Source: Candidatus Omnitrophota bacterium (lineage in GTDB: Bacteria; Omnitrophota; Gorgyraeia; Zapsychrales; JAKLDJ01). From it: DNA of 64,000 nucleotides. Location of the stretch: assembly GCA_022703585.1 (NCBI GenBank), contig JAKLDJ010000003.1:14250-78249 (forward strand), in the 5' to 3' direction. Under the pieces are notes generated by a model, which was given only the letters and a program-made list of their open reading frames with translations, was not told where the DNA came from and ran no database searches. Position numbers and translations under genes: made by a program. Position 1 is the first letter of the stretch, and every line of letters starts with the position of its first letter. Below, in pieces: positions 23,103 to 48,781 of the stretch.

Positions 23103-24428
23103 GTGAATATTGCTATTGTCGGTTCGGGATACGTAGGGCTGGTGACGGGGGTTTGCCTGGCGCAAATCGGGCACAGGGTCATTTGCGTGGATAATGATCC
23201 GGAAAAAATTAAAAAACTAAAGAAGCTGCAGATACCGATTTTTGAACCCGGTTTAAAAGAAATGCTGCGCCGTAACGTTAAACAAAAGAGGCTTTTCTTT
23301 ACCGACTCAATCAGGGAAGCGGCAAAAAAGTCGATGGTGATATTTATCGCGGTCGGAACTCCGCCAAAAGAAAGCGGCGAGGCCGATCTGATTTATGTCG
23401 AAAACGTCTCGCGGGAAATTGCCGCGGGGATGGATTCTTATAAATTGATTGTGGAAAAATCGACCGTTCCCGCCGCGACAGGGCAGAGGATTACGCAGAC
23501 TATTCGGATGAATCTGCCTAAGAAGTATAAAGAAAACAGCAAAAACGTGATGAATTTTGACGTAGCCTCTAACCCCGAATTCTTAAGGGAAGGTTCGGCA
23601 ATCAAAGATTTTATGCACCCCGACAGGATCGTGATTGGGGTTCAGTCCAAACGGGCCGAAGGCCTGCTCAAAGAAATTTACAAGCCGTTAAAGGCTAACG
23701 TTGTCGTTACGGACATGAATTCGGCGGAGTTGATCAAACATGCCTCTAATGCCTTTTTGGCTACCAAGATATCTTTTGCCAATGCCCTAAGCCAGATCTG
23801 CGGCCGCGTGGGGGCGGATATTCTTCAGGTAACAGAAGGGATGGGCCTCGACCGGCGCATCGGCAAGGATTTCTTGAATGCAGGTATCGGCTATGGCGGT
23901 AGTTGTTTTCCTAAGGACGTGGCGGCTTTTATTCACTTAAGCGAAAAGAGCGGCTATGATTTTTCTCTTCTCAAGGAAGTGCATAATATTAACGAATACC
24001 AAAAATTGTCATTTATTAAACTCATCGAAGACAAATTATGGATTTTAAAGAATAAGACTATCGGTGTTTGGGGGTTGTCGTTTAAGCCTCAAACCGATGA
24101 CATGCGTAACGCCCCCACGGTCGATATTATTAACGCGCTCGAAAACGAGGGCGCTAAAATAAAGGCCTATGACCCGCAGGCAATGTCCAAGGCAAAGCAA
24201 TCTTTAAAGAAGGTGATTTTCTGTAAAGATGCGTATGCGGCTGTGCGGGGGTGCGATTGCCTGCTTTTGTTGACCGAATGGGATGAATTTAAGAACGCGG
24301 ATTTTAAGAGAGTTAAACGGCTTATGCGCCATGCGATGATCTTCGACGGAAGAAATCTGCTTAATCGCGAGACTATTGCCAAGTTGGGCTTTGAATATTT
24401 TGGGGTTGGCCGCGGTAAAGTTTTGTAA
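23103..24428 (+). CDS. ugd: UDP-glucose 6-dehydrogenase (GTG start)
   Basis: MNIAIVGSGYVGLVTGVCLA Rossmann motif and catalytic GGSCFPKD. Confidence 0.85.
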   Translation: MNIAIVGSGYVGLVTGVCLAQIGHRVICVDNDPEKIKKLKKLQIPIFEPGLKEMLRRNVKQKRLFFTDSIREAAKKSMVIFIAVGTPPKESGEADLIYVENVSREIAAGMDSYKLIVEKSTVPAATGQRITQTIRMNLPKKYKENSKNVMNFDVASNPEFLREGSAIKDFMHPDRIVIGVQSKRAEGLLKEIYKPLKANVVVTDMNSAELIKHASNAFLATKISFANALSQICGRVGADILQVTEGMGLDRRIGKDFLNAGIGYGGSCFPKDVAAFIHLSEKSGYDFSLLKEVHNINEYQKLSFIKLIEDKLWILKNKTIGVWGLSFKPQTDDMRNAPTVDIINALENEGAKIKAYDPQAMSKAKQSLKKVIFCKDAYAAVRGCDCLLLLTEWDEFKNADFKRVKRLMRHAMIFDGRNLLNRETIAKLGFEYFGVGRGKVL

Positions 24429-24482
24429 GTTTTAAAAAATTGATTTTAGTTTCTTTATTTTCCTCAAGGACGGGGGAGAAGC

Positions 24483-25223
24483 ATGAAAGGTGTTATTCTA
24501 GCCGGTGGCATGGGAAAACGTTTGGAGCCGTTAACGCGGATTACCAATAAACATCTTTTACCGGTCTACAACCGGCCGATGATTTATTACCCTATTCAGA
24601 CGCTCATTGAGGCCGGGGTTAGAAATATCTTGATTGTTACCGGGGGCAATAATGCCGGTGATTTCTTAAAGCTGTTGGGTAACGGAGAAGATTTCGGCAT
24701 TAAGGGAATCCAGTATGCGTATCAGCAAGGGGAAAATGGTATTGCCGATGCCTTAAGATTGGCGGAGCATTTTGCCGGGCACGATAAGATTATAGTTATT
24801 TTAGGCGATAATGTTTTGGACAGTCCGATTAAAAGTTTTGTCGATGAATTTAGGCGGCAAAAGAATGGCGCGCGGATTTTGATAAAAAAGGTTCCGGACC
24901 CTGAGCGATTCGGCGTGGTAAAGTTTAAGGGAGAAAAGATTGTTTCCATTATTGAGAAGCCCAAGGTTCCGCCGTCAGAATATGCCGTGACCGGGATTTA
25001 TATGTACGACAAGACTGTTTTTGAATTTATCAAGAAGCTCAAGCCTTCGCGGCGGGGAGAGCTGGAAATTACCGATGTGAACAATATGTATTTAAGGAAG
25101 AAACAGCTTTCTTACAATGTGCTCGAAGGAAATTGGACAGATTGCGGGACGTTTCACTCGCTGTACCGGGCCAATCGGGTTATGGCTATGAAATATGCAA
25201 AAAATAGAACTCACGATAAATAA
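24483..25223 (+). CDS. Sugar-1-phosphate nucleotidyltransferase (short RmlA-like form)
   Basis: MKGVILAGGMGKRLEPLTRITNKHLLPV signature. Confidence 0.75.
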   Translation: MKGVILAGGMGKRLEPLTRITNKHLLPVYNRPMIYYPIQTLIEAGVRNILIVTGGNNAGDFLKLLGNGEDFGIKGIQYAYQQGENGIADALRLAEHFAGHDKIIVILGDNVLDSPIKSFVDEFRRQKNGARILIKKVPDPERFGVVKFKGEKIVSIIEKPKVPPSEYAVTGIYMYDKTVFEFIKKLKPSRRGELEITDVNNMYLRKKQLSYNVLEGNWTDCGTFHSLYRANRVMAMKYAKNRTHDK

Positions 25224-25256
25224 CGTCGGGACAATAAACAAAATAGGATTGGTTTT

Positions 25257-47029: not shown

Positions 47030-47046
47030 GGGTTTTCGCGAAATTT

Positions 47047-47622
47047 ATGAGAGTCGTTTTCCTTGATCGGGACGGAGTCATTAACAAATTTCCAGGCCAT
47101 GGTAATTATGTGACCAAGGTGAAGGATTTTCATTTCTTACCCGGCGCCCTAGAGGCTTTAAGGCTTTTGACCGAGATGGGCTATTCTGTTTTTATTGTCT
47201 CTAATCAGGCCGGTGTGGCTCGGGGGGTTTATTCTTACCGCAAATTAAAACAGATTACCGATTATATGCTGCGCCACGTCCGAAAGGCGGGAGGCAGGAT
47301 CAAAGAGGCCATGTATTGCATTCACCGGGCTGATGAAAATTGTGACTGTCGTAAGCCCAAAATCGGCTCTATCAGAAAAGCCTTTCAATCCATGAATAAA
47401 CCGATGCGTCATGCCAAGAAAACTTTCTTTGTGGGGGATGTCCAATCCGATATCTTAGCCGGGCACAATGCCGGCTGTACCACGATTTTTGTCCTTTCCG
47501 GTCTGGAAGACCGCCGGAGCCTGCGCCGCTGGAGTGTCCAACCGGACTATATTGCCCGGGATCTTCTTGATGCCGTAAAAGTTATTACCCGCCTTAATTC
47601 TAATCACTCGAAAAACCGATAA
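47047..47622 (+). CDS. gmhB: D-glycero-D-manno-heptose 1,7-bisphosphate phosphatase (HAD family)
   Basis: MRVVFLDRDGVIN... HAD motif I and a Zn-binding Cys cluster (CxH...C...CxC). The upstream extension from 46828 is rejected. Confidence 0.8.
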   Translation: MRVVFLDRDGVINKFPGHGNYVTKVKDFHFLPGALEALRLLTEMGYSVFIVSNQAGVARGVYSYRKLKQITDYMLRHVRKAGGRIKEAMYCIHRADENCDCRKPKIGSIRKAFQSMNKPMRHAKKTFFVGDVQSDILAGHNAGCTTIFVLSGLEDRRSLRRWSVQPDYIARDLLDAVKVITRLNSNHSKNR

Positions 47623-47692
47623 GCTGGAAATTTCAAAAGATCAAAATTTCTCTTACCCGCCTCGCAATCTTTCGCTATAATCAAATCAACGC

Positions 47693-48781
47693 ATGAAAGT
47701 CCTAGTCATCCATACTTCTGCAGGGGCGGGCCACACCAAGGCGGCTGAGGCGGTTTATAACGGCCTTAAAAGTGCGCCCGGCGTCGAGGCACGCCTAGTC
47801 GATACCCTCGAATTTACGGGGCGTATTTACGGGAAACTCTATCAAAGAGGGTATACTTTTCTTATCAAAAAGATGCCTTGGGCGTGGGGGATATTTTTTA
47901 CGCTTACGGATCTTGCCTGGCTTAGAGGGCTTGTTAGAGTTGTTAGGCGCATATCCAATTCGATCAATGCCCGGTCTCTGGTCGACTTTTTAAAGGCTGA
48001 ACAATTTGATTATATTATTTCGACTCACTTTTTTCCTAACGAGGTGGGCGGGCATTTAAAACGAAGAGGAATCATACGCTCTAAATTTATCTGTGTTGTG
48101 ACCGATTTTGACGTGCATAGTATTTGGCTGGCGCAGGGGATTGATTCTTATGCGGTGGCCAGCGAATACACTAAAGAAAAGCTTATTACGCTCGGCGTTG
48201 AGGAAAATAAGATTTTTGTTACCGGGATTCCGACGCACGAGAAATTTTCCAAAGAAGTCGACCGTGACCAAATTAAAGAGAAGCTTGGGTTGCGTAAAGA
48301 TATGTTTACGGTGCTTATCGCGACCGGTTCTTTCGGTATCGGCCCTATCGGGGACATTGCCCAGGCCTTAGGGGGGAATCAGCAGGCTATCGTTGTCTGC
48401 GGTCACAATAAGAATTTGTTCGAGAAATTAAGCCGGCAGAAGATGGAATGTGTCAAAGTCTGCGGCCTGGTTAATAATATGGATGAACTCATGAGCGTTT
48501 CTGACGCGATGGTGACCAAGCCCGGAGGGTTATCGATCGCCGAGGCCCTGGTTAAAAGGCTGCCGTTGATATTTTTTAGTGCTATTCCCGGGCAAGAAAC
48601 CAACAATGTCAGGATTCTTAAAACCCGCGGTATCGGCATTAGCGACAGCAGTATTAACGGAATCGTTGAGGAAATACGAAAACTTAGCAGTTCTCCTGTC
48701 TATCTTGAATCAGTCCGCAAGAACGTTCAAACAATATCCCGGCCTCGCGCGGTTCAAGATATCATCCGACTAATCGTATGA
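47693..48781 (+). CDS. GT28 family glycosyltransferase (monoglycosyldiacylglycerol synthase/MurG-like)
   Basis: MKVLVIHTSAGAGHTKAAEAV N-terminus typical of the MGDG synthase family. Confidence 0.7.
   Translation: MKVLVIHTSAGAGHTKAAEAVYNGLKSAPGVEARLVDTLEFTGRIYGKLYQRGYTFLIKKMPWAWGIFFTLTDLAWLRGLVRVVRRISNSINARSLVDFLKAEQFDYIISTHFFPNEVGGHLKRRGIIRSKFICVVTDFDVHSIWLAQGIDSYAVASEYTKEKLITLGVEENKIFVTGIPTHEKFSKEVDRDQIKEKLGLRKDMFTVLIATGSFGIGPIGDIAQALGGNQQAIVVCGHNKNLFEKLSRQKMECVKVCGLVNNMDELMSVSDAMVTKPGGLSIAEALVKRLPLIFFSAIPGQETNNVRILKTRGIGISDSSINGIVEEIRKLSSSPVYLESVRKNVQTISRPRAVQDIIRLIV

Follow-up and report, generated by a model that had tools for sequence, protein, structure and literature searches.

A glycan locus conserved between lptD and priA across Omnitrophota carries a heptose-type cassette with a predicted minimal thiamine enzyme and a B12-binding radical SAM enzyme

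In a 64-kb window from a Candidatus Omnitrophota metagenome-assembled genome (MAG), 24 co-directional open reading frames (ORFs) on the + strand occupy positions 23103-48781, and we read them, with somewhat better than even confidence, as the Omnitrophota version of a lipid-anchored envelope glycan locus of the lipopolysaccharide (LPS)-core or lipooligosaccharide type, which is kept phylum-wide between lptD and priA and contains a heptose cassette (the window here means the whole 64-kb stretch that was analysed). The product of the locus is most likely a modified, possibly C-branched, 3-deoxy GDP-heptose for a lipid A-core or glycolipid glycan. A first-pass annotation of the same DNA had described the region as exceptionally composite and unusual; its observation was partly confirmed and its interpretation partly supported by this work. 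The most interesting part of the locus, a cassette that combines a thiamine pyrophosphate (TPP) enzyme, a B12-binding radical S-adenosylmethionine (SAM) enzyme and a 3-dehydratase, was missed there.

The tight spacing claimed earlier holds, because intergenic distances are -34 to +163 nt after the ORF starts had been refined (ATG starts at 30757 for an Fcl-like reductase, at 31692 for the dehydrogenase SDR3 and at 47047 for a GmhB-like HAD phosphatase). The GC content across 23103-48781 is flat (0.43-0.48), the + strand carries all window genes from 14140 to 54780, and the borders are lptD (20831-23020) upstream and priA (48778-50622) downstream. Promoter and terminator scans were at background (36 vs 30.1 ± 5.2; 32 vs 25.8 ± 5.0) and are therefore uninformative on operon structure, and a tRNA scan of the 64-kb window found none.

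20831-23020 (+): LptD; Pfam LptD and LptD_N; adjoins the locus upstream, a position kept in loci L062 and L064

The conservation of the locus was assessed by scanning one genome per species with a profile of the membrane protein encoded at 40837-42591, which gave 61 loci, nearly all titled Omnitrophota or 'uncultured Planctomycetales', while two look-ups of homologues of TPPa, the alpha subunit of the predicted TPP enzyme (L062 and L064), supplied the upstream context. A common backbone runs through 16 distant loci in the order ABC-GGDEF-GGDEF-ROK-LptD-Ugd-DH2-Uxs-TPPa-TPPb-Fcl-SDR3-rSAM1-GHMP-NTP-DegT1-GT4-(variable)-GT9-DegT2-GT2b-HAD-GT28-PriA-Fmt, in which the variable slot from GT4 to GT9 holds GT-C, methyltransferase, GT2a and other genes (GT, glycosyltransferase). 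Across these 16 syntenic loci, median identities to the window proteins were 77% for TPPa, 76% for TPPb, 74% for SDR3, 73% for the GHMP kinase, 70% for Ugd, 66% for Uxs, 63% for GT2a, 61% for DegT2 and 60% for the Fcl-like protein, as compared with 46.5% for LptD, 45% for Fmt and 31% for PriA; the GT28-like protein is kept at 50-55% identity at the end of the locus. A short RmlA-like gene, an AsnB gene and the second radical SAM gene (rSAM2) each occur in none of the 16, and in other genomes the variable site has received Wzy_C/O-antigen-ligase-type proteins (L045, L026), GT87, DUF2079, MBOAT and ManC. The shared order in 16 loci and the identity gap relative to PriA therefore indicate a locus architecture that strong purifying selection has conserved across the phylum, with decorations that differ by lineage, and not the exceptional mosaic of the earlier description. 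A chimeric assembly of two contigs, which had been named as a possible artefact, was rejected on the uniform GC content and the synteny in 16 independent loci. Omnitrophota are abundant, uncultured, ultra-small bacteria. The order of the locus is kept phylum-wide and its precursor enzymes are conserved to the degree of core housekeeping proteins, which suggests that the surface sugar is essential and may be specific to the phylum.

The core of the locus is a cassette that is heptose-type by its sequence relationships, and consists of an HddA-like kinase, a GmhB-like phosphatase, an HddC-like guanylyltransferase, SDR3, a His-type 3-dehydratase, a pair of truncated E1-like subunits (the mini-E1 or TPP pair), a B12-binding radical SAM enzyme and an Fcl-like reductase:

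29588-30214 (+): TPPa, predicted mini-E1 alpha (PP-domain) subunit, 208 aa; Pfam E1_dh and TPP_enzyme_C
30216-30752 (+): TPPb, predicted mini-E1 beta (Pyr-domain) subunit, 178 aa; Pfam Transket_pyr 24 bits; PDB E1 beta matches
30757-31695 (+): Fcl-like short-chain dehydrogenase/reductase (SDR), epimerase/reductase or C4 reductase; GDP-fucose synthase model 398 bits vs 500 cutoff
31692-32624 (+): SDR3, putative NDP-sugar C4 dehydrogenase ("Cj1427-like"); 412 bits, E 1e-122, to PDB 6vo6/6vo8
32697-34208 (+): B12-binding radical SAM enzyme 1 (rSAM1); Pfam B12-binding and Radical_SAM; CPFSCSFC motif; AprD4 best in PDB, 77 bits
34218-35222 (+): GHMP sugar kinase, HddA/WcbL-like; best PDB matches 4usm/4usk (136 bits), 3k85, 4n3o
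35239-35946 (+): sugar-1-phosphate guanylyltransferase, HddC/ManC-like (NTP in the gene order); best PDB match HddC 5xhw/6jq8, 121 bits; NCBIfam HddC 146 bits vs 300 cutoff
35950-37152 (+): DegT1, predicted NDP-4-keto-sugar 3-dehydratase (ColD/E1 type) dependent on pyridoxamine phosphate (PMP); His replaces the catalytic Lys; RfbH model 283 bits
47047-47622 (+): GmhB-like HAD heptose-1,7-bisphosphate phosphatase; NF006506 161.7 bits vs 178 cutoff; TIGR01656 123 bits, above the 84 cutoff

The GDP-heptose-type branch with Campylobacter-like modifying enzymes, which had been proposed in the first-pass annotation, is supported by these matches. WcbL/HddA-type heptose-7-phosphate kinases lead the PDB matches of the GHMP kinase (109-136 bits; NCBIfam HddA 145 bits vs 600 cutoff), and HddC structures are the best matches of the guanylyltransferase. 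SDR3, whose start overlaps the Fcl-like stop as ATGA, aligns with 6vo6/6vo8 over residues 11-319, so that a C4 dehydrogenase is suggested with its substrate specificity predicted only. PDB 6vo6 is presumably C. jejuni Cj1427, the GDP-D-glycero-D-manno-heptose C4 dehydrogenase of Huddleston et al. 2020 (cited in PMC10680097), although the PDB title of 6vo6 reads only 'putative sugar-nucleotide epimerase/dehydratase'. The Fcl-like SDR scores 289-296 bits to true Fcl and 233-258 bits to 7anh, 7cxt, 7m13 and 7anc. Two further SDR epimerases had been counted in addition to the Fcl-like one, and this does not stand, as there are three SDRs in all, namely Uxs, the Fcl-like protein and SDR3. DegT1 had been listed as one of two DegT aminotransferases; its 'YVAHIITTIEGG' aligns with 'GNKIITTGEGG' of perosamine synthase with His at the Lys position, the His is found in 22 of 22 homologues, and ColD structures match at 170-174 bits. 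By its replaced catalytic Lys, DegT1 is therefore a PMP-dependent 3-dehydratase of the ColD/E1 type and not an aminotransferase.

The split TPP enzyme was overlooked before, together with the short RmlA-like gene (24483), the two B12-binding radical SAM genes (32697, 42588), two methyltransferases (39163, 40000) and a second GT2 gene. TPPb starts 1 nt after TPPa. In TPPa the GD-X28-N cofactor motif can be read in the sequence ('CGDMSS...VVCDNG'), and in 20 diverse homologues G130, M132 and N160 are invariant and D131 nearly so, while TPPb contains an E1beta-like Glu motif ('MPINE' in 'EMPINESFQ'). Only the PP and Pyr cores match, and the C-terminal domains of E1 are missing, as compared with a full E1 of about 330 + 330 aa with a transketolase C-terminal domain. 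A housekeeping pyruvate dehydrogenase or acetoin dehydrogenase was considered and rejected, as the subunits are truncated, no E2/E3 is nearby and the pair stands invariably amid sugar enzymes. rSAM1 is present in 13 of the 16 syntenic loci; both rSAM1 and rSAM2 combine an N-terminal B12-binding domain with a CxxxCxxC core and thus belong to class B radical SAM, with no subfamily cutoff reached; they may be methylases, dehydratases or enzymes of another function.

The cassette has a broad distribution, and literature searches found no description of such a heptose-modification cassette. In an exhaustive TPPa search all Omnitrophota copies fell into one 50%-identity cluster, and beyond this phylum homologues of about 200-220 aa were found at 44-52% identity, including alpha-beta fusions and an intein-bearing form. 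The cassette thus also occurs on unrelated metagenomic contigs. One such locus (L069) has the order RmlC-like, TPPa, TPPb, His-type DegT (42%), SDR3-like (40%), GHMP (36%), SIS and CTP-transferase, and another (L071) has rSAM2-like (48%), methyltransferase, glycosyltransferase, fused TPP, rSAM1-like (52%), His-type DegT, SIS_2 (GmhA-like) and GHMP. In L066/L067, a low-GC contig with ribonucleotide reductase, GT10/11/25 and DUF5824/5856 that we read as virus-like, the TPP pair lies between His-type DegT genes and SDRs. On the phage-like contig L070 (6337-7989), the TPPa homologue is split by an intein (Intein_splicing and PT-HINT matches) with an HNH gene nearby, and is flanked by rSAM-SPASM, methyltransferase and SDR genes.

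At least 550 stretches of IMG/VR encode a TPPa relative. In the best 80 of these at least 550 stretches (L072-L151), the 8 kb on either side of the TPPa homologue contained TPPb in 79 of 80 viral loci, SDR3-like in 58, DegT1-like in 57, rSAM1-like in 56 and GHMP in 30. The T4-like phage contig L075 (Gp23 476 bits, with scaffold, gp46/47-like and deformylase genes) has a compact block rSAM1-TPPa-TPPb-GHMP-DegT1-SDR3 at 6494-12213. The cultured cyanophages S-SM2 (GU071095.1, 149421-150629) and P-TIM68 (KM359505.1) also have a TPPa homologue of about 35% identity; the S-SM2 copy is a single fused gene in an island with phosphoheptose isomerase, carbohydrate kinase and nucleotidyltransferases, and the fused TPP gene in the heptose-gene island of cultured cyanophages S-SM2 and P-TIM68 is a possible experimental handle. 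Because the linkage recurs independently, these gene neighbourhoods indicate that the mini-E1 pair works with the C4 dehydrogenase, the 3-dehydratase and the B12-binding radical SAM enzyme on a heptose-type nucleotide sugar.

The second half of the argument concerns how the sugars would be assembled, for which the locus encodes six glycosyltransferases:

37168-38280 (+): GT4 glycosyltransferase; Pfam Glycos_transf_1 and Glyco_transf_4
38293-39138 (+): GT2a, divergent GT2-like; Pfam GT2 33.5 bits; no NCBIfam or PDB match
40837-42591 (+): GT-C fold membrane glycosyltransferase, from predicted structure and fold comparison
44096-45160 (+): GT9 (heptosyltransferase family, RfaF-like); Pfam Glyco_transf_9 127 bits; TIGR02195 131.5 vs 134.6 cutoff
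46262-47029 (+): GT2b; Pfam GT2 66 bits
47693-48781 (+): GT28/MGDG-synthase-like lipid glycosyltransferase; Pfam MGDG_synth 94 bits

The Pfam matches agree with the earlier naming of GT4, GT9 and GT28 (MGDG-synthase family), and the GT2 family was also right, except that there are two GT2 genes (38293, 46262). GT2b presumably resembles WaaE/KdtX-type core GT2s. In the PDB, the GT28-like protein matches a processive diacylglycerol beta-glucosyltransferase (9wde, 135 bits) and plant MGD1 (106 bits), and it scores 203 bits to the UgtP model. The large membrane protein at 40837-42591, previously left unannotated, is 100% identical to NCBI PL155_05160; it had no match in Pfam, NCBIfam or PDB sequences, and a profile of its family searched against PDB sequences was also empty. 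Its fold can be named: an AlphaFold2 model made with 30 homologues (pLDDT 86, pTM 0.86) gave significant Foldseek PDB matches (E<=1e-3, TM up to 0.55) that were all GT-C, including DPY19, STT3/PglB/AglB, ArnT, AftA, Emb and ALG3, with PMT just above the cutoff. Across the family, the loop that follows the first helix has three invariant acidic residues (E50, D70 and E79). The protein is thus, on the predicted structure, a GT-C glycosyltransferase and therefore not Wzx, Wzy or a phosphoglycosyltransferase (PGT), and the suspicion that a flippase, polymerase or PGT might be hidden in this ORF fell away.

This GT-C family has more than 360 homologues, and all source-named ones come from Omnitrophota/Omnitrophica MAGs; a few carry a faint PMT_2 match (PF13231) and one is fused to Wzy_C. 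The family is multi-copy in Omnitrophota (a paralogue, P0047, is in the same MAG), and the members most similar to the window protein (44-50% identity) stand in other contexts (L001-L008, L012, L033), often as tandem duplicates beside a Methyltransf_11 gene, while the syntenic orthologues are only 34-41% identical to it; this suggests that GT-C modules are shuffled into the variable slot between GT4 and GT9. Elsewhere, at 10612-13185 (+), the window encodes a membrane protein of 624 aa without a Pfam match, for which at least 8 transmembrane helices are predicted, and after it a GT2 of 230 aa that resembles polyprenyl-phosphate sugar synthases (AglJ 122 bits, ArnC 86 bits). The two look like a second lipid-carrier-dependent periplasmic glycosylation pair and are a candidate donor source for the GT-C enzyme; hhalign of the membrane protein of 10612-12486 against the GT-C family found no similarity.

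The window ORFs of at least 150 aa were scanned with Pfam, with four ORFs at 59920-63763 covered by NCBIfam only and short antisense shadow ORFs outside the scan. Among the scanned ORFs no Wzx, Wzy, Wzz, PGT or ABC-2 exporter family was found (PF02397, PF00953, PF01943, PF04932, PF02706 and ABC-2 membrane families without a match), and the sole ABC ATPase was of the MalK type, so that the absence reported in the first-pass annotation is confirmed for this scope. The absence of Wzx, Wzy and PGT therefore argues for assembly on lipid A-core or a glycolipid, as had been proposed, and the adjacent lptD, a GT9 near the RfaF cutoff, the diacylglycerol-type GT28, the Wzy_C ligase-type inserts of relatives (L045, L026), the homologue fused to Wzy_C and the GT-C fold itself all support a lipid anchor.

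In the reading that we favour, heptose 7-phosphate would be converted into GDP-heptose by the kinase, the phosphatase and the guanylyltransferase, with GmhA presumably encoded elsewhere; C4 of GDP-D-glycero-D-manno-heptose would be oxidised and C3 deoxygenated in a PMP-dependent step. The TPP pair would form hydroxyethyl-TPP from pyruvate, which may attack the keto group and add a two-carbon unit, for which YerE, AviB1/B2 and Plm8/9 are precedents. rSAM1 might C-methylate the sugar, dehydrate it in an AprD4-like manner or otherwise remodel it, and the Fcl-like SDR would reduce it. The five soluble glycosyltransferases (GT9, GT2a, GT2b, GT4 and GT28-like) would build the glycan on a lipid acceptor (lipid A-core or glycolipid) at the cytoplasmic face of the inner leaflet, and because they would build directly on this acceptor, no Wzx, Wzy or PGT would be needed. 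Export would proceed via MsbA and Lpt, and the GT-C protein could use a polyprenyl-phosphate donor to attach a further sugar in the periplasm.

Several observations weigh against this scheme. The chemistry assigned to the TPP pair and the radical SAM enzyme is drawn purely by analogy; the pair is only remotely like solved E1s (<=27 bits), its likeness to AviB1/Plm8 is presumed, and the best PDB match of rSAM1, AprD4, is a dehydratase, not a methylase. GmhA (SIS domain) was not found among the scanned ORFs, nor was an RmlC-like epimerase in the 64-kb window. The HddA (145 of 600) and HddC (146 of 300) scores are far below the NCBIfam cutoffs, and therefore the sugar could be mannose or something else. 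On the T4-like phage contig the cassette stands without a nucleotidyltransferase or a glycosyltransferase, so its product need not be a glycan building block. As for the anchor, lpx, waaA, msbA and kds genes are absent from the 64-kb window, the likeness of GT28 to diacylglycerol glycosyltransferases means that it could be a glycolipid and not lipid A, and the locus showed neither a polyprenyl-phosphate sugar synthase nor a flippase that could serve the GT-C enzyme.

We also put forward, more tentatively and as a possibility short of an even chance, that SDR3, the B12-binding radical SAM enzyme and the mini-E1 pair, optionally joined by the GHMP kinase and the His-type 3-dehydratase, form a new and widespread nucleotide-sugar pathway, the product of which would be a C-branched or chain-extended, C-methylated 3-deoxy-heptose-derived sugar that is an envelope signature of Omnitrophota and is also made by T4-like marine phages; the mini-E1 of 208 + 178 aa would then be a new class of nucleotide-sugar carboligase. 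The cassette would join TPP carboligation and cobalamin radical SAM chemistry to a Campylobacter-type heptose pathway. Literature searches found nothing relevant on heptose or LPS of Omnitrophota/Omnitrophica, nor any published account of their envelope chemistry, and no description of GDP-heptose with thiamine or radical SAM, or of phage radical SAM with GHMP and DegT. If the product is indeed a branched higher sugar, the cassette provides candidate biosynthetic genes for such sugars, and phages would use it to re-tailor host or virion glycans.

A rather unlikely alternative is that the cassette makes no branched heptose at all, and that the TPP pair supplies or cleaves a precursor in the manner of a transketolase, DXS or a decarboxylase, with the radical SAM enzyme acting as an AprD4-type dehydratase, or that the cassette yields a free metabolite or a derivative of a nucleotide and not a glycan unit. 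The diol dehydratase AprD4 is the best PDB match of rSAM1, the TPP pair also weakly matches DXS and split transketolase in the PDB, and in the T4-like phage the six-gene block is flanked by core replication genes and structural genes only. However, in Omnitrophota a guanylyltransferase, a GmhB-like phosphatase and six glycosyltransferases adjoin the cassette, the cassettes of L066, L069, L071 and S-SM2 are embedded among nucleotide-sugar enzymes, and the association of the TPP pair with both a C4 dehydrogenase and a 3-dehydratase fits the logic of yersiniose, where the TPP enzyme acts on a sugar that is already 3-deoxy-4-keto. A comparable doubt, which we judge unlikely to be right, concerns the anchor: the GT28-like enzyme could make a diacylglycerol glycolipid, another glycolipid or a lipoglycan that the other glycosyltransferases extend, instead of lipid A-Kdo. 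Its scores to diacylglycerol-type enzymes, its conservation at the end of the locus and the absence of Kdo and lipid A genes from the window agree with this, whereas the RfaF-like GT9 (131.5 vs 134.6), the directly adjacent lptD and the O-antigen-ligase-type inserts in the same locus of other genomes favour a lipid A-core; the two readings are not mutually exclusive.

Protein glycosylation, for example of an S-layer or pilin, with the GT-C protein acting like an oligosaccharyltransferase, appears improbable to us. DPY19, STT3, PglB and AglB are among its top Foldseek matches (TM 0.43-0.55), but ArnT and AftA score equally well, a WWDYG-type motif was not noticed on reading the sequence, a PGT or flippase for an Und-PP-glycan was not found in the window, and the family is multi-copy with a variable position within the locus. 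It is very improbable that the region is a strain-variable O-antigen or capsule island assembled from several horizontal sources with its export genes elsewhere, a view that could appeal to the several nucleotide-sugar branches in one operon, to the genome-specific AsnB, RmlA-like, rSAM2 and methyltransferase genes, and to further glycan genes in the window (a CDP-dideoxyhexose set and PseB). This is largely refuted by synteny, as the backbone order is kept in 16 distant Omnitrophota loci, always between lptD and priA; moreover, the precursor enzymes are 70-77% identical as compared with 31% for PriA, the GC content is uniform, and Wzx, Wzy, Wzz, PGT and ABC-2 exporter genes were not found in the window.

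Around the heptose-type cassette, the locus contains UDP-sugar genes and genome-specific additions:

23103-24428 (+): Ugd (UDP-glucose 6-dehydrogenase); TIGR03026 470 bits; TuaD model 545 bits, under the 700 cutoff; about 70% identity in L062 and L064
24483-25223 (+): short RmlA-like sugar-1-phosphate nucleotidyltransferase; rmlA models 238-247 bits, sub-cutoff; 0/16 syntenic loci
25257-26558 (+): second NDP-sugar 6-dehydrogenase (DH2; UDP-N-acetylhexosamine (UDP-HexNAc) type, WecC/TviB-like); TIGR03026 437 bits
26602-27546 (+): Uxs (UDP-glucuronate decarboxylase); 352 bits, E 4e-104, to human UXS1 (2b69, 4gll)
27622-29424 (+): AsnB-type glutamine amidotransferase; TIGR01536 458 bits, above the 267 cutoff; 0/16 syntenic loci
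39163-39885 (+): SAM methyltransferase (Methyltransf_11), variable; Pfam; 5/16 loci
40000-40821 (+): SAM methyltransferase (Methyltransf_24, TylF/CmcI type), variable; Pfam; 3/16 loci
42588-44024 (+): B12-binding radical SAM enzyme 2 (rSAM2); Pfam B12-binding and Radical_SAM; CPFKCVFC motif; 0/16 syntenic loci
45157-46269 (+): DegT2, DegT-family sugar aminotransferase; Pfam 421 bits; catalytic Lys kept ('SFYPTKGLG')

The encoded enzymes match makers of UDP-GlcA and UDP-Xyl (Ugd, Uxs), as annotated before, and of a UDP-HexNAc uronic acid. The SDR at 26602 is by its similarity profile a true UXS, as other SDRs in the PDB reach at most 131 bits (ArnA 81 bits, RmlB-type dehydratases about 112 bits or less). 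DH2, for which the WecC and TviB models give sub-cutoff scores of 235-306 bits, has 64-66% identity in L062 and L064. The uronamide branch (AsnB) proposed before is not supported as a feature of the conserved locus, as AsnB is specific to this genome. AsnB, the RmlA-like transferase, rSAM2 (48% identical to the radical SAM protein flanking the fused mini-E1 in L071) and the two methyltransferases are lineage-specific decorations. The aminotransferase assignment of DegT2 holds, with the catalytic Lys in 16 of 16 homologues. An Arn-like pathway to 4-amino-4-deoxy-L-arabinose, to which Ugd, an SDR, a DegT protein, GT2 and GT-C could have belonged, was set aside, as the SDR is a true UXS (352 vs 81 bits for ArnA) and genes for ArnC, ArnD, a formyltransferase and ArnE/F are absent. 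The gene list given earlier was only partly right.

The surroundings of the locus also deserve mention. Directly upstream of lptD (17487-20844, +) there are two GGDEF diguanylate cyclase genes in tandem, one of which also encodes a GAF domain, and then a ROK-family gene that overlaps the start of lptD with its stop codon; this GGDEF-GGDEF-ROK arrangement is kept upstream of the glycan locus in other Omnitrophota, including L062 and L064, which hints at cyclic di-GMP-linked control of the envelope locus. On the other side, 3' of priA-fmt (51694-53727, +), lie two tandem genes of the GalT/HIT superfamily (galactose-1-phosphate uridylyltransferase-like, DUF4921/DUF4931), also found downstream in L047 and L039. 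A second glycan set on the - strand (56655-61613) contains an RfbF glucose-1-phosphate cytidylyltransferase (335 bits, above cutoff), an RfbG-like CDP-glucose 4,6-dehydratase, an SDR, a GT2 and a His-type DegT of 439 aa that is RfbH/E1-like with a Cys-rich stretch; it looks like a CDP-3,6-dideoxyhexose pathway. At 62157-63763 (+), a MarR-family regulator associated with exopolysaccharide (weak match) precedes PseB (UDP-GlcNAc 4,6-dehydratase, inverting; 489 bits, above cutoff), and the two are the start of a pseudaminic-acid-type locus that continues past the window end. At 2609-4615 (+) the window encodes a 668-aa protein that has a pretoxin-HINT domain at its C-terminus (PT-HINT 52 bits) and may thus be the stem of a polymorphic toxin.

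The closest known counterpart of the cassette is the capsular GDP-heptose pathway of C. jejuni, in which GmhA2/HddA/GmhB/HddC are followed by the Cj1427 C4-dehydrogenase, the C3-dehydratase of HS:5 dependent on pyridoxal phosphate and Fcl-like C4-reductases (PMC10680097). The Omnitrophota kinase, GmhB-like phosphatase and guanylyltransferase are nearest to heptose-pathway structures, and SDR3, the His-type 3-dehydratase and the Fcl-like SDR would fill the modifying steps. Unlike the C. jejuni pathway, the window has no GmhA and no RmlC-type C3/C5 epimerase, and the locus adds a mini-E1 TPP pair and a B12-binding radical SAM enzyme; unlike the KpsMT capsule locus of C. jejuni, it is a phylum-conserved, lptD-linked set of glycosyltransferases, with HddA/HddC scores below the cutoffs. 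In this linkage it resembles LPS inner-core assembly on lipid A-Kdo (WaaC/WaaF; MsbA, Lpt), as it has a GT9, soluble glycosyltransferases without Wzx/Wzy/PGT, lptD and WaaL-type inserts in relatives, but the window lacks waaA, kdsA/B and lpx, and the heptose genes are of the GDP (HddA/HddC) and not the ADP (HldE/HldD) type. The membrane protein is similar in fold to ArnT/PMT_2-type GT-C enzymes (TM 0.52/0.55 to ArnT 5f15; faint PF13231 in homologues), although it has no significant sequence similarity to any solved GT-C. The same locus also recalls the Arn setting, with ugd, a UXS/ArnA-related SDR, a DegT aminotransferase and GT2 genes, whereas ArnC-like, formyltransferase, deformylase and ArnE/F genes are lacking and the SDR is a true UXS. 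As in the colitose pathway (ColD/ColC), a PMP dehydratase with His for Lys and an Fcl-like SDR would act on a GDP-sugar, but the locus has no GDP-mannose 4,6-dehydratase and the 4-keto group would come from SDR3, a Cj1427-type dehydrogenase; therefore C6 would stay oxygenated, unlike in colitose. Finally, TPP-dependent two-carbon branching of NDP-4-keto-deoxysugars is known from YerE (yersiniose A) and from E1 alpha/beta-like pairs (AviB1/AviB2, Plm8/Plm9, kosinostatin), which add a C2 branch at C4 of NDP-4-keto sugars (PMC4802897). The Omnitrophota pair, with 208 + 178 aa, no E1 C-terminal domains, at most 27 bits to solved E1s, a B12-binding radical SAM partner and a predicted activity, differs from these systems, and its presumed substrate would be a GDP-heptose instead of a dTDP- or CDP-6-deoxyhexose. 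Nevertheless, it shares with them an E1 alpha/beta pair with the GD...N and Glu motifs, encoded beside enzymes for a 3-deoxy-4-keto nucleotide sugar.

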